Part shown: positions 6,429 through 52,166 of the stretch, one piece after another
How the letters are laid out: every line of letters starts with the position of its first letter
How positions within the stretch are numbered: position 1 is the stretch's first letter
DNA from: Candidatus Pacearchaeota archaeon
Lineage (GTDB): Archaea > Nanobdellota > Nanobdellia > Pacearchaeales > GW2011-AR1
Direction: 5' to 3'
DNA: 54,516 bases
NCBI GenBank assembly: GCA_018303945.1
Contig: JAGVXD010000005.1
Coordinates: 1 to 54,516 of the forward strand
Translations under genes and position numbers: made by a program
The notes under the pieces: generated by a model
Database searches by the model: none
Seen by the model: the letters and a program-made list of their open reading frames with translations, nothing else
What the model was told of the DNA's origin: nothing

Positions 6429-7736
6429 TTAAATTTTTATTTCTGCTTTTATAGAAATAGGAGCTTCACCGCCGTGCCAGGTGAATCTAGGGCGTATTCT
6501 CATAGGATAAATGCGTTCAGAGTTGTCGTCTAGAATTATTGCTGATCCTTTTAGGGTGGGCAAGTCATCCATTTGCTGTTTAATGCTTTCAAGAAGATAT
6601 GTCTGCATTATTTCGTTCAGAGCTTCCACATCAGGTTTTGAAGTTACCCTATGTGATATGATAATATCTGACTGGCTCATTACATCCCGATGTATTTGTC
6701 CTGGCTGCTGTGTCGCAAGCACGAGAGATATTCCCGGCTGCCTTCCTTCGCGCAAAAGCTGCATCAATGCGTCGCTTGCAGGCGTTTTTGTATTCTTTGG
6801 GAGAAACTCATGTGCTTCATCTATAAAAATCCAGGCCAGAGGTTCTTTTCTTCTTCCTGCATAAGATAAATATTCCTGTCCATGATGAATTGCTTCCATT
6901 TCCTCCTGCTTGCGGGCATCCATGCGGTTTGCAAATATCTTTCTAGATAGCAGGCTTATGACAAGAGCACGTATGTTGAATGCGCTACTTGAGCTATATA
7001 TGGATATGTCCAGAACTGTCGTTGTACCTCCCGTTAGAAGCTCACTTACTTCTGTTCCTTCTCTAGTGTTTGAGAATATACCCCAAGTAGATGCTGCACT
7101 GAAAAGACCATAAACTATTTCTTTTGCCAAATCTGATGCTTTAGAATCATTGATTATAGAGTTTTCAATGTCTTTAATTGTGTAGCTCCCTTTTTCCTGC
7201 AATGCAGTTATTGTTCTCTCTATCAATACTCCTGGTAGGCTGGTAAATTCCAAGTTGAAAAGAGTTATCCAGTCTTCTGCCTGCAGTTCTGATACTTTAA
7301 GAGCAAAAGTCTTATCAAAAGGAATCATCTTTTTTTGATATTCATCTATTTTACCAAACGGTACAAATACTTTTACCGGGAGAAGTTTTGTTTCCAGTTC
7401 CCATGATGAAAGGAGAGCTTTGTCTTTTTCATTGCGGTATTTCATTGTCCAGAATATCCCCATTGTATCAAAAATTAACGAGGCGATATTTTTTGCATTG
7501 TCAGACGGCAGATTGGCAAGCTCTTCTGCAATTACTCCGGCTGAATATGACTTGCCGCTTCCCCTTTTGCCAGCTATCAAGACTACATGGCTTCTTGCTA
7601 TATCCATCCAGAGCTTGTTTGACAATGAAGTATAAGTTCCCATTTTGACATATCCCTTTCCAAGATAGATAAGCCCACGATTACCAAATTTTTCTTTGTC
7701 AGTCGCGTCCCGACCGATTACGATGTCATATGACAT
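6429..7736 (-). CDS. HerA/DUF87-like P-loop ATPase
   Basis: GKRGSGKS Walker A, IFIDEAH Walker B, REGR, LATQQP. Confidence 0.88.
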   Translation of the reverse strand: MSYDIVIGRDATDKEKFGNRGLIYLGKGYVKMGTYTSLSNKLWMDIARSHVVLIAGKRGSGKSYSAGVIAEELANLPSDNAKNIASLIFDTMGIFWTMKYRNEKDKALLSSWELETKLLPVKVFVPFGKIDEYQKKMIPFDKTFALKVSELQAEDWITLFNLEFTSLPGVLIERTITALQEKGSYTIKDIENSIINDSKASDLAKEIVYGLFSAASTWGIFSNTREGTEVSELLTGGTTTVLDISIYSSSSAFNIRALVISLLSRKIFANRMDARKQEEMEAIHHGQEYLSYAGRRKEPLAWIFIDEAHEFLPKNTKTPASDALMQLLREGRQPGISLVLATQQPGQIHRDVMSQSDIIISHRVTSKPDVEALNEIMQTYLLESIKQQMDDLPTLKGSAIILDDNSERIYPMRIRPRFTWHGGEAPISIKAEIKI

Positions 7737-13722: not shown

Positions 13723-14268
13723 TTATTGTTTCCAATCAACAAGAGTATAACGTCCTACAAAATCATTAGATTCATCCCCATTTTCTGTTTCTTTTTCCTT
13801 TCGTACAGAAGGTTTAGTGAGGTGCATGGTTATCCAAAGTCCAGTTGAATTATCTGTAATAAATGTCCCATCAAGTTCTTTATCTAAACCAAATGCCTTG
13901 ACTAATTTGCCAGGCCCATTTGTGAGATTTTTCTCGTCTGAACTGCCCTTATGCTTCATCATTATTTCTATTCCTTCTAATGGAATAACTTGCCTTATCA
14001 AAACTTCATTGTAAATATCTTCTCTAAATGTAGAAATTGCAAGCATATAATTTCCTTGAGAGGGATACATATGTATTGCGCCTGGAGTGTAAAAAGCCCC
14101 CCTATTTCTATTATTAGGAACTGCATTTCTCATAGAATAAGCATCTACTTGAGAGATAATACCGCTAATCTTCTTGCCTTTGTAATTACGAACTAATAGC
14201 TTTCCAACTAAATCGTAGCCTACTTGTCTTGAATCAAGAGCAAAAAATGATTGAGGCAATGCTTTCAT
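13723..14268 (-). CDS. mpg: 3-methyladenine DNA glycosylase (MPG/AAG family), divergent
   Basis: FF...LVGKLLVR, I..VDAY (canonical ETEAY), VLIR, LTNGPGKL. Confidence 0.85.
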   Translation of the reverse strand: MKALPQSFFALDSRQVGYDLVGKLLVRNYKGKKISGIISQVDAYSMRNAVPNNRNRGAFYTPGAIHMYPSQGNYMLAISTFREDIYNEVLIRQVIPLEGIEIMMKHKGSSDEKNLTNGPGKLVKAFGLDKELDGTFITDNSTGLWITMHLTKPSVRKEKETENGDESNDFVGRYTLVDWKQ

Positions 14269-14332: not shown

Positions 14333-14359
14333 TAAAAATACACCTAAGGTGTATTTTTA
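14333..14359. promoter_or_regulatory. perfect palindrome, candidate operator
   Basis: TAAAAATACACCT-A-AGGTGTATTTTTA spanning the TATA box to the ATG of the AbrB-like gene. Confidence 0.7.
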
Positions 14360-14523
14360 TGGCTGAAAAGAAAAGTTATGTAATTACGAAAAAGATAGCG
14401 AAGCATGGGAAACAGCCCATAATTCTAGTGCCTAAAATATTAGAAGTAGAGCTTAAACCAGGCACTATTGTCAAATTGCACATAGAAGTTGTCAAGGAGG
14501 TTGAAAATGGTTCTGGAAAGTAA
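14359..14523 (+). CDS. small AbrB/SpoVT-like DNA-binding protein (54 aa, not in ORF track)
   Basis: MAEKKSYVITKKIAKHGKQPIILVPKILEVELKPGTIVKLHIEV: K-I-x-x-x-G...I-x-V-P-K...L-K-P-G swapped-hairpin pattern. Confidence 0.75.
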   Translation: MAEKKSYVITKKIAKHGKQPIILVPKILEVELKPGTIVKLHIEVVKEVENGSGK

Positions 14524-15310
14524 AATAAATATCGATGGAAACTCTAATTACCAGAAATTAGCGGCAAGACTGCAGGAAATAGCAAAAATGACTGAAAGCA
14601 TGACTTCTAAAGAGATTTCTGAAAGATGGGGAGAATCAAGTTTAGTATGGTTGCAAGGCGTTGACAATTGTATGGTCTATCTTAGAAAAGAAAAGAGAAT
14701 AGTAGAAAAAAAGAGAGAGAAAGTTCCACAAGAATACTACGAGCAAACTTCTGGCTTTGATTTTCCACAATTAAAAAGTTGGTATAATCCAAATGAAAAA
14801 TTAAAGCATAGACAGAGAGAACTCAAAAAGATAGTTTATACAGAAAGGATGCTTGAACTTATTGCTCAGAAATTTGATATAAATATAAAGCCTATTGCAA
14901 ATAGAGGGTCAGATGGCTTTGTTAAAACTTCAAAGGACTTGCTTAATTTATGTGATACTGACCCTAAAGCGAGATATATTATCCAGCTTTGCCAGGGAGA
15001 TGATGTGGATGTTGCAGACATTATAGCAGTTGTTTATGATGGAAAAATTGCAAGAGATGATGCAATTAAGCTCTTGCAAGAGCCATCTCTTAGAGATTAC
15101 TTGGGTGAATTTAGGAAACCAGTAGGAATTCCAGATATTGAAGAATATGCAAATGAGTTGTTGCCTCTTGATAAAAATGGAGTTGTTGCCTCTATAGTTT
15201 ACAGAAGACTTATAGAATGTAGAAGAAATAAGCTTGGGGCAAAGCCGAGTATTGAACAGCGTAAAGATTTCTTAGAAGAAGTACAGAGAAACTTAGAGAG
15301 GTTGATATGA
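14507..15310 (+). CDS. hypothetical protein, first large gene of the repeat/SNF2 operon
   Basis: GGAGG RBS before ATG 14507; overlaps both neighbours. Confidence 0.75.
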   Translation: MVLESKINIDGNSNYQKLAARLQEIAKMTESMTSKEISERWGESSLVWLQGVDNCMVYLRKEKRIVEKKREKVPQEYYEQTSGFDFPQLKSWYNPNEKLKHRQRELKKIVYTERMLELIAQKFDINIKPIANRGSDGFVKTSKDLLNLCDTDPKARYIIQLCQGDDVDVADIIAVVYDGKIARDDAIKLLQEPSLRDYLGEFRKPVGIPDIEEYANELLPLDKNGVVASIVYRRLIECRRNKLGAKPSIEQRKDFLEEVQRNLERLI

Positions 15311-16134
15311 AATCACAACTCTATCAGACACATGAAGGGAGATTGATCGCGTTCGCAGCCCTAAAAAATGAACTTTGCAGGAATCCTTCCGGCCGGGAAA
15401 TGATGGAAAGATATCCAAATATAGAAAAGCCGTATAATGGAAGATACCGTAATTACTGGCAGAAATGGGAATTTGACAAAGCGTTTGATGATTTAATGAC
15501 TAAATTGGAAATAGTTCCTACAGAAGAAGATATTAATATTTTTATTTCCGGTGCAGTATTTTATTTTAATGATTTATCAGGCAAGAGAGAAAATAGAGGA
15601 CATTATGATTTACTAGATTATCTAGCAGATAGAGGTCTTGGACCTAATAGGGATGAACGAGACAAATTGAGAGTAAGGTTGAAAGAAGAGCATAATAGAA
15701 ATAGGATGAATGAGATAAACGATATATTCTCTGAAATGGAGAGAAAATTGGGAAAACAACCATCTTCTGAAGAATTTGAGAAAGCTCACAAAAGAGAATA
15801 TGGCTTCATTTTATATTCATTAGGCAATTGGACGAATTATCTTGCAACTCTAGGGAGAAAAACCTTAAGGACATTCCGTTATTGGGATGTTAAAACCGTA
15901 GATAAGGCATATGATGCACTGGAAGAAGATCTGAGGAGAACACCTACTTTTACTGAGTTCAAAATAAAAAATCCCGGGGCAATATCAAGAATTACTTCAG
16001 GAAAATATGATTCTTCTATCAAATCATGGAGAGATTATTTAGTTTACAGAGGTAAAAATCCCATAGAAAAAAGACACTCTCTTAATTTACTGGAATCTAT
16101 ATTAGAAGACCCTGAAACTGGAGGTCTGCCATGA
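15307..16134 (+). CDS. repeat protein (HNH-associated-repeat-like LGxxP(T/S)xxEF units) with LLESILE tail
   Basis: up to four partial or complete repeats; ATGA coupling. Confidence 0.8.
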   Translation: MKSQLYQTHEGRLIAFAALKNELCRNPSGREMMERYPNIEKPYNGRYRNYWQKWEFDKAFDDLMTKLEIVPTEEDINIFISGAVFYFNDLSGKRENRGHYDLLDYLADRGLGPNRDERDKLRVRLKEEHNRNRMNEINDIFSEMERKLGKQPSSEEFEKAHKREYGFILYSLGNWTNYLATLGRKTLRTFRYWDVKTVDKAYDALEEDLRRTPTFTEFKIKNPGAISRITSGKYDSSIKSWRDYLVYRGKNPIEKRHSLNLLESILEDPETGGLP

Positions 16135-16556
16135 TAAAACGTGTTTATTATCAATATTGGAAAGATTTTGAATCTTGGGAAAGATTTGGCTATGATAATA
16201 ATTATGATGAAAGGAAGGCTACTAACCTAACTGATAGTGATGCAAAAGAAGAGAGAAGCTGGTATAGAAGAGGCAAATATATGGGGTGGCTGAAAGATTT
16301 TCCTTTTGCAAGCAGATCTCCTTATCTAAAACTTGATGGGTGGAAGAAGCATGGGTTAGAAAACGAGTTTGATAAGAGGGGCGGCAGAAGCCTTAGAAAG
16401 AGCGGTAACATAGATGAGAGATCATGGTATCAACGAGGCGAGTATAAAGATTGGCTGGATCAATTTCCTTTTAAAAGGAAGAGAAGAAAGAGTAGAATTC
16501 TTCATAATTCATTATTGCTATTGGAATCTCTTCTCGAAGAAGGAGACATAAAATGA
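16131..16556 (+). CDS. two-repeat protein (ERSWYxRGxYxxWLxxFPF) with LLESLLEEG tail
   Basis: internal duplication of about 55 aa; ATGA coupling. Confidence 0.8.
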   Translation: MIKRVYYQYWKDFESWERFGYDNNYDERKATNLTDSDAKEERSWYRRGKYMGWLKDFPFASRSPYLKLDGWKKHGLENEFDKRGGRSLRKSGNIDERSWYQRGEYKDWLDQFPFKRKRRKSRILHNSLLLLESLLEEGDIK

Positions 16557-17209
16557 GAAAAAGAAAGAATGTATTTTGGACTCCTAGTAAAATAGATGGG
16601 GCATTTAGTAGTCTAAGACATGAACTTGGTAGGGTTCCAACTAACGATGAATTTATAAATAAATATAGCGGCGCGATGAAATCAATAAGAAGGGGGATTT
16701 TTTCAGGTATTAACTCTTGGAATGATTACTTAATATCTAAGGGATATGACAAATGGAATATTGATGTTGAGAATGTTGATTCTCTTTATAGCGAATTGAA
16801 ACAAGAATTAGGCAGGATACCAAATGGAACTGAATTTTCTAAGAAAAGTTGCGGAGCATATGCTTTTATTGTAAGAAGAAAATATAGGCCTTCTATAAAA
16901 AATTACAATCAATTTGTTCAATTTAAGGAGGGCAAACCTGCTACTCCATTTAAATTATCCTGGAATCCTGAAAGAGTAAACGAAGTATTTTATGAACACA
17001 AGAGTCAATTGGAAAGAGTTCCAACATTTAGAGAATTTGCAAAAAAAAATAAAGGTGCTTTAAGGATGATACTTGAAGGAAGATATAACTTTTCTGTGAG
17101 AACTTGGAATGGTTTTTTAGAATCATTAGGAGAAAAAAATCCCAAAAAAGAAAAAGGCTTTCTTGGTGTTTTAGAAACAATTTTAGAAGGAGGAAATGAA
17201 AATGCCTAA
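16553..17209 (+). CDS. three-repeat protein (LGRxPTxxEF units) with VLETILEGG tail
   Basis: three repeats of about 60-70 aa. Confidence 0.85.
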   Translation: MRKRKNVFWTPSKIDGAFSSLRHELGRVPTNDEFINKYSGAMKSIRRGIFSGINSWNDYLISKGYDKWNIDVENVDSLYSELKQELGRIPNGTEFSKKSCGAYAFIVRRKYRPSIKNYNQFVQFKEGKPATPFKLSWNPERVNEVFYEHKSQLERVPTFREFAKKNKGALRMILEGRYNFSVRTWNGFLESLGEKNPKKEKGFLGVLETILEGGNENA

Positions 17210-17873
17210 AGTAAAAGCTAACAGGTATTGGAATAACCATAAGAATGTAGACTCGGCATTTGATAACCTTGAAAAAGAATTAGGCCATATTCCTACTTCA
17301 AGAGAGTTCAGAGATGTGAATGAATGTGCGTTTAAAGCAATTGCCAATGGAAGATATAATAGCGATATTAAGACATGGAATGGTTACTTAACATATAGAG
17401 ACAAAAAGGTAAATCAAGAAAGAGGAATCTGGACACCTAAAAAAATCGATGAAGCTTTTGATACATTGGAATCTCAGTTAAAAAAAACTCCTTCTCAAGA
17501 TGAATTTAAGAGAAAATATTTTGGAGCTTTTGATTCAATAGTCAGTGGGAGATATGCAAAAGAAGTGACCTCTTGGAATGCTTATCTGAAAAAGAGGGAT
17601 AAAGAAACAAATGTTGATTTGACAAATTGGTCTCCTAAAGCGATAGACGAGGCGTTTGATACATTGGAGCGTAAATTAGGTAAGACTCCAACCTCTGTAG
17701 AATTTCATAATTTGCATGGTGCTGCATTAAGAGCAATCAGCAAAGGAAGATATGACTCAAAGGTTCATTCATGGCCAGAATATCTCATTCATAGAGGAAA
17801 GAAACCTTATAGGACAAGAACTAATCCTATAAGAATTTTTGAAGACATCTTAGAAAATGGAGGCACACAATGA
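17196..17873 (+). CDS. three-repeat protein with IFEDILENGG tail
   Basis: three repeats W..IDxAFDxLExxLGxxPTxxEF...GRY...SWxxYL. Confidence 0.85.
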   Translation: MKMPKVKANRYWNNHKNVDSAFDNLEKELGHIPTSREFRDVNECAFKAIANGRYNSDIKTWNGYLTYRDKKVNQERGIWTPKKIDEAFDTLESQLKKTPSQDEFKRKYFGAFDSIVSGRYAKEVTSWNAYLKKRDKETNVDLTNWSPKAIDEAFDTLERKLGKTPTSVEFHNLHGAALRAISKGRYDSKVHSWPEYLIHRGKKPYRTRTNPIRIFEDILENGGTQ

Positions 17874-18547
17874 GTAGAAGACAAGAAAACTATTGGAGTA
17901 ATCCTTCTAATATTGATAAGGCATTCAGTCAGCTTTGCAAAAAAATAAAGAGAATTCCTACGGCAAGAGAATTCGCAAGTGAATACTGTGGAGCAATGGC
18001 TTCACTAGCAAAAGGAAGATATTATAAAATTATAACAACCTACAATCAATATTTGTTAAGTCATGGAAAAAATGTGACTAGAGACTCAAATAAATATAAT
18101 TCGCCTGCAAAAATTAATGGGGCGTTTGATGAACTGGAAAAGGAAATAGGTAAGGTGCCTACCGCTAGAGAAATTGAAGAAAGTTGTGGTGGATTATTAG
18201 TATCATTAAGAAAAGGAAGATATCATCCAGAAATTAAAACTTATAATGATTACTTAAAACATCGTGGAAAATTAGTGTTGCATGATATAGGTAGATGGTC
18301 TTCTCCTAATAAAATCGATGAAGCTTTTGACAGACTTGAAGAATCTCTTGGAAGAACGCCTAGAAGAAAAGATTTTGTAATAAAATACGCTGGAGCATTA
18401 TCTGCCATTGTTCAAGGCAGATATAATAAGAATATCCACTACTGGAATGAATATCTTATGTTTAGAAACAGAGTTATTAACAAAAAATCAGGTAAAGACA
18501 CGACATTAATTCTTGAATCTCTTCTCGAAGAAGGAGGCACACAATGA
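17870..18547 (+). CDS. three-repeat protein with ILESLLEEGG tail
   Basis: three repeats as above; ATGA coupling to the SNF2 gene. Confidence 0.85.
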   Translation: MSRRQENYWSNPSNIDKAFSQLCKKIKRIPTAREFASEYCGAMASLAKGRYYKIITTYNQYLLSHGKNVTRDSNKYNSPAKINGAFDELEKEIGKVPTAREIEESCGGLLVSLRKGRYHPEIKTYNDYLKHRGKLVLHDIGRWSSPNKIDEAFDRLEESLGRTPRRKDFVIKYAGALSAIVQGRYNKNIHYWNEYLMFRNRVINKKSGKDTTLILESLLEEGGTQ

Positions 18548-21021
18548 CTAAAGTAAATTCTGAACAGCAAAGAGAGATAAGATCGGCATATAGAGAAATA
18601 TATCAGGATTTTGCGGAAAAAACTGGAGAATTGTTCAGAATGTATGAGGGAAAAATACCTGGACTTGAAGAAAGGGTGAGAAATCCTGCTTACGATATAA
18701 ATGGAGATAATGGAGGTTCAGAATATCTGTATGATTTTCCTTCATTCTATCAGGTAGAAGGCGTACAGTTTCTTATGGATCAAAAGAGAGTTCTAATTGC
18801 AGATGAAATGGGTGGTGGGAAAACTGCACAAGCAATTGCCGGAAAGATAGCATTGGACAATAAGCTCGGAAGGAAAGTAAAAACACTTATTGTCTCTCCA
18901 AATAGACAAGTAAAGAGAATGTGGGCGGAAAAACTCAAAGAATATATTACTCCTGAACAATATGCAACTATCAGAATAGAGAATATAGAGAGTTACAAGA
19001 AAGCTAATATAGATGAAGCAGACGTTGTTCTTATAGATTATCATGTATTTTCTTTCTCTGATAATAAGTCGAATAATCTAAGTAGAAAAGAATTAAAGAG
19101 AAAATTGATGAATGCCGGCTTCAATTACTTTGTTCTAGATGAAGCCCATAATGTTAAGAATTTCTCATCAGCAAGCAGATTTAATCATGTAAATGACCTT
19201 GCTTCTCAATCAGAGTATCTCTGTTTGTTATCCGGAACTCCAATTCCAAATAGCATCCAAGATATATATGCTTTGATTGCACTTCTAAAGCCAGAACATA
19301 TTGATGAGAGCGGCAAGAAGGTTGGATATAAAAACGCTTCAGCAGTTGCGGCAGAACATTACAAAACTCCTTCTGTCGTCGGAGCAATTCTTAGGGCTTC
19401 AAGATTAGAAAGAAAGCTTGAAAATGTAGCTAATTTGCCTTCTAAAACGGAAGAGTGCGTACATATAGAAAGGCTAAGCGATGCCCAACAGGAATTATAC
19501 GATTCTATATATGAAGATGATTCACTTTCAGGTTTGCAGAAAATTCAGAAACTTAAGCAAGCATTGCTTAATCCAGCTATCATTGATAAGAATCTAACTT
19601 CTGTGCCGCAAGCAAAATATGAAAAATTAGATGAGATAGTAAGAAGAACTTTAAAGAAAGGAGAGAAGATTATTATTTATTCTCCTAACTTCAGAATAGG
19701 TGTTGTTGACACACTAAGAGAACGCTATGAAGAATTTGGAGCCGTGCATATGGATGGGAGCAATACTTCTTCTCGTTCTTTCGTTATTAAGAGATTTCAG
19801 AAAGATGCCAGTACTAAGATAATGATTATGAATAAAGTTGGAGGAGAAGGCATTCCACTTACTGCTGCGAACAATCTTGTATTTCTTGAAGACCCATATT
19901 CTCCTGGTGAAAGAAGGCAAGTAATTGGAAGAATTTGGCGTCCAGGACAGAAAAAACCCGTGACTATATTAACGTTGAACGTAGATTGCACAATTGATGA
20001 TGGCTTAAGGAAATTTCTTGAGCAGAAGAGAATTGCCATTGAATATATAGAAAAGGGGCTTCCTTTAACTTCAGAGCAGAGAAAATTACTAAGTGGAGAT
20101 AATGATAAAGCTCTTGCTCTATGGCTTAGAATTAATCAGAATTACTTATATACTCCTGCACAAATCACTGGATCATTAATTAGAAATATTAAAGAAAAGC
20201 CTGAAGAAAAGGTGGTTAAGATTTTTGAAGGAAGGTTTGGAAAACATCTTGCTGAATCTCTTACAAAGAGTTGGGGAGATTCTGTATTAAGCAATTGCGC
20301 AAATCTTTACACTACAATAATAAATGGAATAGAGAAGAAAGAAGGAAATTTAGAGAAGATTGTGGACATAGCTTCTGGATTTGGAGCTCTGTCGCATGCT
20401 TTACAAAGGAGAGGCATAGTTAATATAGATGCAGATAAGCATCACTTTAACTCCCCTTATGCTTCTAAAGAAAACATTAACTTGATAGGCAAAATGACAA
20501 AACTCCCTATTGAAGAAAATGGCACATTTAATTTAGCACTTTGTTCTATGGCTTTAGATATATTGCCAAATACTTCAGAAGAGCCTGGACGCGTGAAGGC
20601 AGTTGGAGAAGCAAATAGAGTTTTACAAAGAGGAGGGTATTATATGTTTGTTCTTTCTGCTCCAGCAGTTAAAAATGACGATAAAATGAGGGAAGGAATG
20701 AAGAAAATCGGGTTTGAGGTTTTGCCTGAACTTACCGGCTTTGTAAAGTCGAAAGACAGAAGAATAAAAACTAATCTGTATGTACTTACTGCCCAGAAAA
20801 CGTTTGATTTAGATAATTCACAAAATGTTGCTGATTTCAGAGAATACTTTGAGCTTAATTCACCGGCAGTTGCAAGAATATTGGGAACTGCGCAGAAACG
20901 CAGAGGCGACGCAGTTGAGTTTGAATTTGTAAGAGAAACTGAAATAGAGGATTTGCAAAAAGCAATCAGAAGATTTCAGGAGAGAAAAGGGAAATCTAAT
21001 TTTTCTTCTTCGCAGGTCTGA
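18544..21021 (+). CDS. SNF2-family helicase/ATPase fused to C-terminal class I SAM-dependent methyltransferase domain
   Basis: ADEMGGGKT, VLDEAH, LSGTPIPN, MDGS, GGEGIPLTAA, QVIGRIWRPGQ; C-terminal VDIASGFG, FNLALCSMALD, EANRVLQRGG. Confidence 0.9.
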   Translation: MTKVNSEQQREIRSAYREIYQDFAEKTGELFRMYEGKIPGLEERVRNPAYDINGDNGGSEYLYDFPSFYQVEGVQFLMDQKRVLIADEMGGGKTAQAIAGKIALDNKLGRKVKTLIVSPNRQVKRMWAEKLKEYITPEQYATIRIENIESYKKANIDEADVVLIDYHVFSFSDNKSNNLSRKELKRKLMNAGFNYFVLDEAHNVKNFSSASRFNHVNDLASQSEYLCLLSGTPIPNSIQDIYALIALLKPEHIDESGKKVGYKNASAVAAEHYKTPSVVGAILRASRLERKLENVANLPSKTEECVHIERLSDAQQELYDSIYEDDSLSGLQKIQKLKQALLNPAIIDKNLTSVPQAKYEKLDEIVRRTLKKGEKIIIYSPNFRIGVVDTLRERYEEFGAVHMDGSNTSSRSFVIKRFQKDASTKIMIMNKVGGEGIPLTAANNLVFLEDPYSPGERRQVIGRIWRPGQKKPVTILTLNVDCTIDDGLRKFLEQKRIAIEYIEKGLPLTSEQRKLLSGDNDKALALWLRINQNYLYTPAQITGSLIRNIKEKPEEKVVKIFEGRFGKHLAESLTKSWGDSVLSNCANLYTTIINGIEKKEGNLEKIVDIASGFGALSHALQRRGIVNIDADKHHFNSPYASKENINLIGKMTKLPIEENGTFNLALCSMALDILPNTSEEPGRVKAVGEANRVLQRGGYYMFVLSAPAVKNDDKMREGMKKIGFEVLPELTGFVKSKDRRIKTNLYVLTAQKTFDLDNSQNVADFREYFELNSPAVARILGTAQKRRGDAVEFEFVRETEIEDLQKAIRRFQERKGKSNFSSSQV

Positions 21022-21613
21022 ATTTTATTCCAAAGGCACCATCTGGACGCCAGCCCAAGTAGCCGTCGAAATCTCGTGTCTTGCCTACCGGAACATTCCA
21101 GGAAAGAAAAGGAAGGAAATCAGTAAGGGAAATATTAAAATAAAGACCTTTCTTTTGTGAGAGAGAAGGCTTTTGAGGCGAAAATACATGACTACTTCCT
21201 CTTTCAAGATTTATCAGTGAAAAATGCGAGTGATTTGTTTCTTGTGCTGTGCCAATAAAATAAAAGTTAAAGTTGTGCAGAGGATTTCTAGTATTCCAAG
21301 AGCAAAATGTCTTAGATGTGATATTTTTACTATATGGTGTGCGCCTTGCTTCTCCAAAAATGCCGTCGTCTTCATTTCCAAGAAGAGCCCAAGCTGTCCA
21401 ATGAGGCACGTCATACCATTCAATTTGCTCTCTATGCCTCGGGATTATTTCATATAATGAATGTCTTGATGCTTCTTCTCTTATTTCTGCGTACTTAGAT
21501 TGCTCTATACCATAATTAACATATTTCTGTGCGGAATTATGGTATGATGCACATCCAGAAAGATAAATTAAATTAGATAATAACAGAAAAGATTTTCTAG
21601 AAGGAAATTTCAT
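20996..21613 (-). CDS. hypothetical exported/lipoprotein-like protein
   Basis: N-terminal LSGC lipobox-like signal; NEDDG and RNP motifs. Confidence 0.65.
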   Translation of the reverse strand: MKFPSRKSFLLLSNLIYLSGCASYHNSAQKYVNYGIEQSKYAEIREEASRHSLYEIIPRHREQIEWYDVPHWTAWALLGNEDDGIFGEARRTPYSKNITSKTFCSWNTRNPLHNFNFYFIGTAQETNHSHFSLINLERGSSHVFSPQKPSLSQKKGLYFNISLTDFLPFLSWNVPVGKTRDFDGYLGWRPDGAFGIKFRPAKKKN

Positions 21614-21707: not shown

Positions 21708-22802
21708 ATGGATGGGCAGGCTGAACTTGAAAAAGAAGTGAAGGAGGTGCAGGAGACGATTATACCTGTACAGCAGAGCAACGGCAAGGTTTCAGAAGAA
21801 GAGTTTTTTAGCATATTAAAGATAATTGCACCCGGTACAAGCTTGCGGACGGCACTTGATGGAGCTTTACGCATAGGGCATGGAGCTCTAATTGTTCTTG
21901 AAACTGAACAACTTATCCCCCTTTTAGATGGCGGCTTCAGGGTAAACTGTCGTTTTACTCCGCAACGTCTCATGGAGCTTACAAAAATGGATGGAGCAAT
22001 AATTCTCTCAAAGGACTGCAAGAGAATAAATCATGCAAATGTTCTTCTTACACCAGACAGCAAGATTAAAAGCAGCGAGACAGGGACAAGGCACAAAGCT
22101 GCCGAGCGTACTGCAAAACAATTGGGCACTTTAGTTATCGCCATATCAGAGCGCAAACATGAAATAACGATTTTTTACAAGAATATAAAATATCCTATTA
22201 AGACAACAGGAGAAGTATTAAGAAAGTCAAATGATTTTCTGCAGGTACTTGAAAAACAGAGAGATTTATTTGACAAAAATCTTGATAAACTGAATAAATT
22301 AGAGCTTAGAAATCATCCAAGTCTTCATCAAGCTTTGCTAGTTATACAAAAAGGGAGACTTATTCAGAAGATAGCTGAAGATGTGAAGAGGTATGTTATA
22401 GAAATAGGCAACGAGGGAACTCTTTTAAAAACGCGCTTAAAAGAAATTACTACTGGTGTGGAAAAAGAAACTAACTTGGTAATAAAGGATTATACAAAAC
22501 TAGACCTTAAGAAATCCAGAATATTATTGGAGAGCCTGACTCATGAAGAGCTGCTTGATAATGAGAATATTCTAAGTATGCTTGCTTATGAGAAGCCCAT
22601 CCAAACTTTGCCTATTAAGGGTTGGCGCATACTTTCAAAGACTTCCTTATCAGAAGCTGAAGTTGCTGCTATTGTAAAAGCTTCCGGTAGTTTAGGGAAG
22701 GCGATAAATTCTCCTGTAAGTGTCCACACTGATGTTGTTGGGCAGGAAAAAGCACAGTCATTCAAGGAAGAAATTGATAAAATAAAGCTTAATCAGTACT
22801 AA
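21708..22802 (+). CDS. disA: DisA-type diadenylate cyclase
   Basis: APGT.LR, ELTKMDGAI, ETGTRHKAAER, DisA linker region (EKQR, ELG.EG.L-like). Confidence 0.9.
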   Translation: MDGQAELEKEVKEVQETIIPVQQSNGKVSEEEFFSILKIIAPGTSLRTALDGALRIGHGALIVLETEQLIPLLDGGFRVNCRFTPQRLMELTKMDGAIILSKDCKRINHANVLLTPDSKIKSSETGTRHKAAERTAKQLGTLVIAISERKHEITIFYKNIKYPIKTTGEVLRKSNDFLQVLEKQRDLFDKNLDKLNKLELRNHPSLHQALLVIQKGRLIQKIAEDVKRYVIEIGNEGTLLKTRLKEITTGVEKETNLVIKDYTKLDLKKSRILLESLTHEELLDNENILSMLAYEKPIQTLPIKGWRILSKTSLSEAEVAAIVKASGSLGKAINSPVSVHTDVVGQEKAQSFKEEIDKIKLNQY

Positions 22803-50240: not shown

Positions 50241-50600
50241 CAAACGCACTCGACACAAATGTTCAGCAAGTGAAGGCATATAGCCCTGCAGATTTAGCTA
50301 CTTTTGATAATGCTGTAAGAGGACTAGAAGGCGTTCTTAATCCTGCTTTGCTTAGACCATTTCAGCAATTGAGAAGCAAACTGTAAGTTCCTATTTACTT
50401 CTTGGAAATATACATTTTATCAGATGAATGTTTTTATAGTCTATTCTGGAAAGCATTATGTCCTAGCTAACTATGCAACAAGGATGCATAGGGCAGACTG
50501 GGCTACACGTCCTTTCACTAAGGCGAGAAATTGCTATAAAATACAGCCATGACAGCAATGAAATGGCAGTGAGTTTGATAAAGTGAAAGGGCTACTCTGG

Positions 50601-50720: not shown

Positions 50721-52166
50721 ATGCTATACACAAAATTATGCTCTTATGAAAATCTTTTCAGCGCTTATCAAAAAGCAAGACAGGGAAAGACAAAGAAGCA
50801 TTATATTCTGACATTTGAGAAAGAGTTGGAAAAGAATCTTAATCAATTACAAATAGAGCTTATAACTCAGACTTACAAGCCAAAGCCTCTGAGAACATTT
50901 ATCATAAGGGATCCAAAAACTAGGAAAATATCAAAATCACGATTTAGGGATAGGGTTATCCATCACGCTCTAATCAATATCATAGGTTCGGATTTCAGCA
51001 AGGGTTTTATTTATGATTCTCATGCAAATCAGATAGGGAAAGGAACATTAAAGGCACTTGAAAGGTTTGATCATTTTAAGCGCAAAGCCTCAAAAAATGG
51101 AACTTGTCCTTGCTATGTGTTGAAGGCAGACATAAGACATTATTTTGAAGAAGTAAATCATAGTGTGCTAATATCAATCCTTAGAAGAAAAATAAAAGAT
51201 GAAAAAGTAATCTGGCTTGTAAAACAGATTCTATCAAATATATCTGAGAATCCATCGGGGGGGGGGGGCGAACGCCTCCAAGGCATGCCTCTTGGCAACT
51301 ACACTTCTCAATTTTTTGCCAATGTATATCTTAATGAACTTGACCAATATGTTAAGCACATCTTAAAGGCAAAATATTACATTCGCTATGTGGATGACTT
51401 TGTTATTCTTTCTCATTCAAAACAAGAGCTTGAATTATACAAAGAGAAAATTGATAGATTCTTAACAGAGATACTGCATCTCAGTTTACATTCCGACAAG
51501 TCAAAAGTGTTGATGCTTGATCAGGGTATTCCCTTTCTCGGATTTAGGATTTTTACACATAGCAGGATAATAAGAAAGGCAAATCTAAGAAAATTTCAGG
51601 GAAAATTTCGGGAATTTAAGACATTATATAAAGAAAGACAAATAAACAGAGAGCAGGTTGTGGAAAAATTAGAAGGTTGGATGGCATATGCAAGACAGGG
51701 CAATACTTACAAATACAGGAGAAAGCTACTCCAAAGATTCAACAAAGATTTTCCAATTAAGAATAAAAGTCAAATCATCCTATCTAAAAAGATAACTAAT
51801 TTTTTCAGAAAGTATTATTCAAGCAAGGTGGAGTTTAGTGTTCAGAAAACATTGTTTCTTCTCAGGAAAGGATTAAGCATAGAAGAGATAGAAAAAGAAA
51901 GATGCCTAAAGCAGGGAACTGTCTGGGAGCACGTTATAAATCTTATAGAGCATGGACAATTAGCTGTTTGGAATATCATGCCTAAAAAGAAAATTGTTTA
52001 TTTATTGCAAAGAATAAAAGATCCCGAAGAGCCTCTTAAGCAGATCAAGGAAAGAATATATGATCAAAGAATAACGTATGATGAGATTGCTTGTGTGAGA
52101 GCACATATGAAGATGAAGGAGAAAATAAAGAAAAGCAATAGCCTTAAACACGCAAAGAGTCACTAG
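50721..52166 (+). CDS. DGR reverse transcriptase with C-terminal HTH-like extension
   Basis: PKTR.I, FRDRVIHH, ADIRHYF, GMPLGNYTSQFFAN, YIRYVDDF, FLGF; extra C-terminal GLSIEEI..ER.LK..TVWEH. Confidence 0.95.
   Translation: MLYTKLCSYENLFSAYQKARQGKTKKHYILTFEKELEKNLNQLQIELITQTYKPKPLRTFIIRDPKTRKISKSRFRDRVIHHALINIIGSDFSKGFIYDSHANQIGKGTLKALERFDHFKRKASKNGTCPCYVLKADIRHYFEEVNHSVLISILRRKIKDEKVIWLVKQILSNISENPSGGGGERLQGMPLGNYTSQFFANVYLNELDQYVKHILKAKYYIRYVDDFVILSHSKQELELYKEKIDRFLTEILHLSLHSDKSKVLMLDQGIPFLGFRIFTHSRIIRKANLRKFQGKFREFKTLYKERQINREQVVEKLEGWMAYARQGNTYKYRRKLLQRFNKDFPIKNKSQIILSKKITNFFRKYYSSKVEFSVQKTLFLLRKGLSIEEIEKERCLKQGTVWEHVINLIEHGQLAVWNIMPKKKIVYLLQRIKDPEEPLKQIKERIYDQRITYDEIACVRAHMKMKEKIKKSNSLKHAKSH

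Follow-up and report, generated by a model that had tools for sequence, protein, structure and literature searches.

Type I/ISP restriction-modification systems combine a motor and a methyltransferase with separate, variable targeting subunits, and in hsdS shufflons recombination reshuffles the targeting modules. An SNF2 motor paired with a methyltransferase is a feature of DISARM (DrmD with DrmMI) and BREX (BrxH with PglX), and SNF2 motors are also found in Zorya (ZorD) and Dpd (DpdE). TALE and C2H2 zinc-finger arrays are built from small tandem modules. An operon comparable in part to these systems is encoded within a 54,516-nucleotide stretch of DNA (hereafter the window) from a Candidatus Pacearchaeota archaeon (GenBank assembly GCA_018303945.1, contig JAGVXD010000005.1, positions 1 to 54,516). 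Its seven plus-strand open reading frames (ORFs), A to G, span 14489-21021 and encode five small proteins (B to F), four of which contain tandem units of one repeat family, as well as a large protein G that fuses an SNF2 ATPase to a methyltransferase. In the reading favored here, to which we give a probability of roughly 60%, B to F are interchangeable nucleic-acid-targeting adaptors of the G motor-methyltransferase and form with A one machine encoded by a coupled operon, docking through a common C-terminal tail or through a domain of A (the A-domain).

The resemblance to type I/ISP restriction-modification is one of analogy, consisting of a motor, a methyltransferase and what may be separate and variable targeting subunits. 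In contrast to those systems, the motor here is of the SNF2 type, the methyltransferase is a generic class I enzyme, and an Mpg-like protein may serve as effector. HsdS, HsdM and HsdR families and a nuclease were not detected with Pfam or PADLOC, nor did either reveal Methylase_S-type target recognition domains in A-F. Protein G matches the SNF2 parts of the PADLOC models ZorD, DpdE, BrxH and DrmD, and the other signature proteins of DISARM, BREX, Zorya and Dpd are absent among the eight proteins scanned: PADLOC, applied to A-G and one downstream ORF, matched G only, apart from a marginal AbiEi match for A (E 0.0022). G may also be compared with the DarB-like methylase-helicase proteins of P1. 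Nothing on a module of SNF2-methyltransferase, adaptors and Mpg-like protein appears in the titles, abstracts and passages of the literature searched, supplementary files lying outside that search.

Repeat proteins of the operon

A profile built from the canonical units (one iteration) recognizes 13 units in the window, four in B, of which three are degenerate or truncated, and three each in D, E and F; it found none in A, C or G. A reading made earlier from the letters of the DNA (the sequence-only reading) had counted about 12 copies, three per protein, and likened them to the homing-endonuclease-associated repeat, here without an HNH domain. The count is borne out, and the consensus and all ten of the nine-residue segments (9-mers) that it listed are present in the window. 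Three units per protein describes D, E and F, but neither B, with four, nor C, with none. The units belong to an already curated Pfam family, PF18780 (HNH_repeat, "Homing endonuclease associated repeat"), as the earlier likeness had implied. At a gathering score of 26 this family matches D (29.0 bits), E (35.5 bits) and F (32.2 bits); B, at 25.9 bits, lies marginally below that score, and the Pfam scan gave no match in A and C. The locus holds the only PF18780 match of the whole assembly, which comprises 803.7 kb in 22 contigs and is 86.9% complete. Pfam detected neither HNH nor any other nuclease family in A-G at E ≤ 1, so that the units are not accompanied, in the same protein, by the catalytic domain that marks a homing endonuclease.

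In the literature searched, PF18780 appears as one row in a table of modeled repeat families (PMC8078820), and experimental work on the family was not found in that literature. Like the family at large, the proteins described here repeat a module of about 60 residues in tandem, with LGRxPT...W..YL as its pattern. They differ in being short, nuclease-free three-unit proteins with a common C-terminal tail, present as a paralogue array in an SNF2-methyltransferase operon. In E and F, the units follow one another with a start-to-start pitch of 66-67 residues. They are basic, as had been supposed, with isoelectric points of 9.5-9.8 for D, E and F and a net charge of +1 to +8 per unit, while the tails are acidic.

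Protein C bears two copies of a different motif, ERSWYxRGxYxxWLxxFPF, at 16251-16307 and 16416-16472. A second repeat type, approximately W/F..(S/T).E.L..Y....G.S........Y..V..RGL.D..FP, is seen alongside PF18780 units in several relatives (L023 9143-11490; L092 109-1089). The repeat of C may be this second type, a likeness noticed by eye; a BLAST search of C against the loci with the second repeat type returned nothing at E ≤ 1e-3. NCBIfam returned no family for A or C and only sub-threshold sigma-factor matches for F.

Relatives and conserved neighborhood

An exhaustive search with F returned 123 clusters among 1.84 billion representatives. PF18780 was present in 95 of the 121 relatives scanned, which also contained ResIII/helicase (three), SNF2 (two), Mrr nuclease (two), LAGLIDADG (two) and Methyltransf_11 (two) domains; HNH was not among the 25 commonest of the 74 families in these relatives. 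Several of them fuse components that are separate in the window. In P0092 (1006 aa), one unit and then an A-domain precede an orthologue of G (37% identity over residues 9-753). A methyltransferase is fused to five units in P0005, and in P0040 units are accompanied by Methyltransf_11. In P0093 an Mrr nuclease and a ResIII helicase precede the units (PF18780 E 5e-05); P0126, also matched by the repeat query, is laid out alike in its nuclease and helicase parts, PF18780 itself being undetected.

In a sample of 400 further genomes from the phylum, a three-unit profile matched 11, and none of the 27 in the same family. A neighborhood of Mpg-like gene, repeat or adaptor gene and SNF2 gene is found at the window and in G216, G229, G222, G172 and G225. 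G216 has an Mpg-like gene, an SNF2 gene (1167 aa), in whose product Pfam detected no methyltransferase, and then three repeat proteins with the tails ELAALEELVEVLV, ELAALEELVEVLG and ELAALEELVASLAE. In G172, an Mpg-like gene and an SNF2 gene are accompanied by two repeat proteins with the tails TIENLINEYSKQ and TIEELMAEYSRKDDK, and in G225 a repeat protein is encoded together with an Mpg-like gene and an SNF2 gene, the tails being ILEDYAA, ILEEYAR and ILSAYVGRQ. The Mpg-like protein of G225 (L059 2231-2818, minus strand) itself ends in HLLADYVRGKF, a tail of the kind carried by the repeat proteins of that locus. At G229, the Mpg-like gene is followed by a 484-aa protein of PF18780 units and A-domain and by an SNF2-methyltransferase. 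The layout of G222 is the same, but its 460-aa adaptor has HTH_23 repeats (E 6e-17) in place of the PF18780 units; both adaptors have the same A-domain. With five tail-bearing proteins, the window has the largest adaptor set among the loci compared.

Gene coupling and the shared tail

Neighboring ORFs of the operon overlap by 4 nt (ATGA), except at D/E, where the overlap is 14 nt. Proteins B to F all terminate in one amphipathic acidic helix of about 12 residues with the pattern L-L-E-S/T-L/I-L-E-E/G-G, which reads LNLLESILED... in B, LLLLESLLEEGDIK in C, LGVLETILEGGNENA in D, IRIFEDILENGGTQ in E and LILESLLEEGGTQ in F. Such tails are similar inside a locus and different among loci: LLESLLEEGG in the window corresponds to ELAALEELVEVLG in G216, TIE(N/E)L..EYS in G172 and ILE(D/E)YA in G225. 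The sequence-only reading was centered on 15307-18547, that is, on genes B to F. The tail and the SNF2-methyltransferase and Mpg-like context were absent from it, and it is these that decide function.

The gene junctions, comprising tail codons, GGAGG and the ATGA start, form a 43-nt DNA repeat found at 16524-16566, 17841-17883 and 18515-18557. The DNA of the C/D junction is 84% identical to that of the F/G junction. A complex prediction for G (25-row alignment) with residues 143-225 of F (13-row alignment), run without controls, scored 0.00 in two runs and counts neither way.

Proteins A and G and the Mpg-like gene

Protein A has no Pfam or NCBIfam family. Over residues 145-272 it shares 49% identity with residues 71-199 of P0092, a segment directly N-terminal of the SNF2-methyltransferase part of that protein. 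The A-domain, of about 130 residues, could be aligned over 13 proteins, and in eight of the twelve others it follows PF18780 units. A Protein Atlas search with A gave a best feature score of 0.79 with TM ≤ 0.31, and hence no lead.

In G, the SNF2 ATPase occupies residues 69-468 (SNF2-rel_dom E 5.9e-30, Helicase_C E 1e-12) and the methyltransferase lies at about 600-740 (Methyltransf_11 E 5e-06). This fusion is common to 29 homologues. A sequence search of the Protein Data Bank (PDB) with the methyltransferase part returned no methyltransferase at E ≤ 1, and a pattern search of the genome contigs, based on the alignment of G and P0092, gave 56 pattern matches and no relative.

PF02245 (Mpg/AAG) occurs in 83 of 401 genomes. 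The genome of the window has two Mpg genes. The canonical one is on contig C7 (1809-2348) and scores 234.5 bits; the divergent one, next to the operon, scores 88.8 bits, and its product is truncated relative to the 181-position profile (Table 1). The E of the canonical E-A-Y motif, the catalytic residue of human AAG, aligns with D in the window protein and G, G, S, S and A in five module-linked relatives.

Adaptor turnover and module shuffling

Metagenome loci in which G is 64-66% identical to that of the window carry different adaptor sets. L091 has an orthologue of A and a single three-unit protein with the tail LLEALLEEDIP. L092 has one 326-aa protein of mixed units with the tail FLETILKEDKLT, and L090 has this same mixed-unit protein, its start lost at the contig end, with a further array downstream. 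P0001 (356 aa; three member sequences from three contigs) is a mosaic of the form E1-E2-E3/E1-E2/D1/F2-F3, in which the segment after EF through WNDYL has been naturally swapped between unit scaffolds, and P0004 (227 aa) is a mosaic of E and F. In P0057 (151 aa), which is 67 residues shorter than D, the termini are like those of D, a comparison made on the ends only. P0001, P0003 and P0004 carry a PF26350 label in precomputed annotations.

Four metagenome runs, from groundwater or soil, provided contigs that were aligned to the locus. Contig ends recur at 16675, 16733, 17378, 17508 and 17744, which are EF and WNxYL codons. In run X8, a contig extends to 16733 and continues with the letters found after 18257, and in run X10 a contig begins at 18245, preceded by the letters of 16704-16720. 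The resulting D1::F2 join, over the 13-nt sequence AATGATTACTTAA, was thus seen in runs of different studies, and the identical join is present in P0001. An assembly chimera was considered as its origin and rejected, since just 13 identical bases are common to the two sites and the join is spanned in contigs from two runs. The word length of the contigs was presumably 31, and a false join would need a longer stretch in common than 13 bases.

Contigs of runs X8 and X9 cover A-E at 100% identity and stop after about 18274-18385, with almost nothing over 17932-21100. A different downstream part in these populations is one possible cause and an effect of filtering another; the gap itself proves nothing.

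Variability of the units

The sequence-only reading had placed a hypervariable recognition helix after EF within a conserved scaffold. Pairwise identity among the ten canonical units is about 35%, and the 9-mer G-A-x-x-x-I-x-x-G that was named as hypervariable has a mean pairwise identity of 40%, the same as helix 4 (40%) and close to helix 1 (39%). PTxxEF is the most alike of these segments (51%), and the five residues from EF to GA are at only 14%. Entropy (H) was computed from 268 non-redundant full-length units, drawn from the 537 units that 130 proteins contain. Of the 60 unit columns, more than 20 exceed 3 bits, and they include positions in helix 1 (5, 8, 12, 14, 15), helix 2 (23, 24, 27-31), helix 3 (34, 35, 38, 39), the hairpin (43, 45) and helix 4 (54, 55). 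The contrast of one variable helix with a constant scaffold accordingly gives way to variable columns in every helix, with identity lowest in the five residues before the 9-mer and real variation also at some three polar positions within the 9-mer.

Within helix 3, columns 32, 33, 36, 37 and 40 are conserved as G, A, A, I and G. Column 34 is hydrophobic, and columns 35, 38 and 39 are variable (H 3.4-3.9 bits), with hydrophobic fractions of 0.17, 0.40 and 0.09, respectively. Because they are polar, columns 35 and 39 are probably exposed. One variable face of helix 3 is therefore probably exposed, yet columns 23, 24 and 27-31 vary at least as much. Between E and P0003, a single orthologue pair of 87% identity in which the reading frames of P0003 are intact, only 3 of 29 substitutions fall within columns 27-39. 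Positional orthology of the units (D1~E1~F1) was also considered and was not observed: identity is 35% for units in the same position, 38% within the same protein and 36% for other pairs.

Predicted fold

AlphaFold2 (AF2) modeled the whole of F, with 13 aligned relatives, as three separate four-helix units at a predicted local distance difference test (pLDDT) score of 82.1. A single unit, with ten aligned units, reached a pLDDT of 94.9 and a predicted TM score (pTM) of 0.78. The helices of the single-unit model span residues 4-18, 24-30, 32-39 and 50-56, with a short hairpin between the last two. The first match by VIA-align was a segment of SauUSI (PDB 7clg, residues 618-669; Z 6.1, and 5.9 in a second run; root-mean-square deviation 1.7 Å over 51 residues, 18% identity), followed by LOTUS domains (Z 4.7-5.1) and by the N-terminal helix-turn-helix (HTH) of TetR and winged-helix domains (Z 3.5-4.3), all in a range (Z < 8) that can mean just a common helix arrangement. 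The top Foldseek rows were sigma factors, at E ≥ 3. A profile of the ten units matched region 3 of the sigma factor WhiG with E 0.006 over 26 residues, covering helix 1 and LGRxPTxxE; matches to Pfam Sigma70_r3 were sub-threshold only.

According to the SauUSI paper, residues 618-669 form a four-short-helix subdomain of the "coupler" joining the ATPase and the recognition domain, and the authors give it no binding role other than this link (PMC7913695). The coupler is the best structural match and is likewise joined to an SF2 ATPase acting on DNA. In contrast to the arrays described here, SauUSI has a single copy within one polypeptide, and sequence identity is the 18% given above. With sigma-70 region 3, TetR and winged-helix HTH domains, the units share the alignment over helix 1 and LGRxPTxxE and the low VIA scores. 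They differ from these in adding a hairpin and a fourth helix, and the scores are too low for homology. A confident four-helix model, the WhiG match and the exchange for HTH_23 repeats in G222 speak for the proposal that the units are HTH-like; the structural scores (Z 3.5-6.1, Foldseek E ≥ 3) are weak. An HTH-like fold is thus plausible and falls short of being established.

Proposed function and alternatives

In the mechanism proposed here, the basic units, each an independent HTH-like domain, would be nucleic-acid binders, with DNA the most probable ligand. Each array would dock on the SNF2-methyltransferase through its tail or, where the parts are fused, through the A-domain. Different arrays would then steer where G translocates or methylates, loosely like the specificity subunits of type I restriction-modification, and recombination at conserved motif-coding DNA would reshuffle units among genes. 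Indirect support for the DNA-binding step may be seen in the basic charge, the fusions to DNA enzymes and the HTH_23 substitution in G222.

Several observations weigh against this proposal. Foldseek found nothing in the PDB at E ≤ 0.001 for either the three-unit or the single-unit model, and the fold matches are weak, the best by VIA-align (Z 5.9-6.1) being to a coupler subdomain of SauUSI without a known DNA-binding role. We infer the binding of the adaptors to DNA or to G from sequence and models. The methyltransferase of G lies outside the known DNA-methylase families; because it resembles only generic class I enzymes (UbiE-like, E 8e-05), RNA, a protein or a small molecule are conceivable substrates of G. 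The tail codons E-E-G-G also read as a ribosome-binding site, GGAGG, 7-10 nt 5′ of the next ATG and, owing to this double use, the conservation of the tail within the window locus may be partly a matter of DNA. The Mpg-like gene of the window is read from the other strand and lies 90 nt upstream of the ORF with which the operon begins. Finally, the six loci with the conserved neighborhood all come from one phylum and, as relatives, are not independent.

The sequence-only reading proposed that every unit recognizes a short DNA word by its hypervariable helix and that the arrays follow a code like that of TALEs or zinc fingers. The units are indeed small tandem modules that, as in TALE and C2H2 zinc-finger arrays, could each touch a few base pairs. 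Their pitch in E and F is fixed, columns 35, 38 and 39 lie on one face of helix 3 and are among the most variable, two of them polar, and P0001 has exchanged the EF-to-WNDYL segment by natural means. TALE and C2H2 arrays, however, have almost identical scaffolds in which one or two residues set the specificity, whereas the units here share about 35% identity and vary over all helices; the conservation of the helix that was named matches that of helices 1 and 4, and the E/P0003 pair places few of its changes in columns 27-39. These data do not support a modular code of this type, and we regard it as very unlikely. A better alternative, though still an unlikely one, is that the units are protein-protein or RNA-binding modules which regulate the SNF2 ATPase in the way of LOTUS domains or of the SauUSI coupler, the two best structural matches. 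LOTUS domains bind the Vasa helicase or RNA. Every Z score is low, however, the units are basic, relatives fuse them to Mrr or LAGLIDADG nucleases and to helicases from more than one family, and in G222 classical DNA-binding HTH repeats stand in their place.

The name of the family, the absence of a nuclease domain and the degenerate units of B could also be taken to mean that the units are decaying, functionless remnants of homing endonucleases that have lost their nuclease. This is hardly credible for five intact, translationally coupled ORFs whose tail is conserved over paralogues and relatives, whose order beside SNF2-methyltransferase genes is conserved, and one of which has an 87%-identical orthologue with intact frames. 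An extension of the adaptor reading, speculative and on balance doubtful, is that the operon encodes a programmable DNA-marking or defense machine of ultra-small archaea, a counterpart of type I restriction-modification assembled from other components. Its specificity subunits would be swappable HTH arrays plugged by their tails into one SNF2 translocase-methyltransferase and diversified within populations by recombination, and the Mpg-like protein, mostly catalytically altered, would read or remove an unusual methyl mark written by that enzyme.

Features of the locus

The coordinates of the operon and its upstream neighbor are collected in Table 1. The contig is chromosomal, from the small genome of a groundwater archaeon, and also carries PolB, FEN1 and RFC genes; the homologues with names, seen for one window protein, are from Woesearchaeota and Pacearchaeota. 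The 54-aa ORF at the head of the operon has no Pfam match at E ≤ 0.1 and may be a small regulator, or not a gene. For protein A, the Met at 14507 is a more likely start than the TTG at 14489, and the Atlas record of A begins at residue 7.

Table 1. Coordinates of the operon, its upstream neighbors and the recombination junction, in positions of the window.
Feature	Position	Strand	Basis or details
Mpg/AAG-like glycosylase, divergent, operon-linked paralogue	13723..14268	-	PF02245, 88.8 bits, profile positions 2-149
54-aa ORF, operon head	14359..14523	+	ORF list; overlaps TTG start of A
Protein A, 273 aa from TTG	14489..15310	+	Degenerate unit and A-domain of about 130 aa
Protein B, 275 aa, four units and tail	15307..16134	+	Unit profile, PF18780; units 15349-15468, 15457-15558, 15712-15861, 15883-16062 (last alone canonical); tail 16081-16131
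Protein C, 141 aa, without PF18780 unit	16131..16556	+	ORF list, motif comparison; tail 16512-16553
Protein D, 218 aa	16553..17209	+	Units 16577-16747, 16763-16936, 16961-17137; tail 17162-17206
Protein E, 225 aa	17196..17873	+	Units 17229-17408, 17430-17606, 17628-17807; tail 17829-17870
Protein F, 225 aa	17870..18547	+	Units 17894-18073, 18101-18271, 18296-18472; tail 18506-18544
Protein G, 825 aa, SNF2 ATPase and class I S-adenosylmethionine (SAM) methyltransferase	18544..21021	+	Pfam
Recombination junction in D unit 1	16704..16733	+	13-nt AATGATTACTTAA common with 18245-18257, F unit 2

Further genes lie around the operon. A DisA-type diadenylate cyclase (E 4e-91) is encoded at 21708-22802 on the plus strand, about 0.7 kb 3′ of G and beyond an opposite-strand ORF of 205 aa, and a HerA-like ATPase at 6429-7736 on the minus strand, upstream of the operon; neither was seen at the other loci of the module. 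At a distance, an RT-16 RNA motif (Rfam RF03019, 82.2 bits, 50462-50600) stands directly 5′ of a reverse transcriptase gene (50721-52166, plus strand), whose 481-aa product has RVT_1 (E 3.3e-20) and a C-terminal HTH_40 domain.

Significance

If the arrays are targeting subunits, they would constitute a way of aiming a DNA motor-methyltransferase that is undescribed in the literature searched, via small nuclease-free modules with a common plug. Natural shuffling of these modules is visible in environmental populations. The defined three-unit proteins, together with natural chimeras such as P0001 and P0004, make ligand recognition by PF18780 directly testable. The window adds an archaeal example to a module in which a non-canonical methyltransferase and a glycosylase look-alike join an SNF2 motor.

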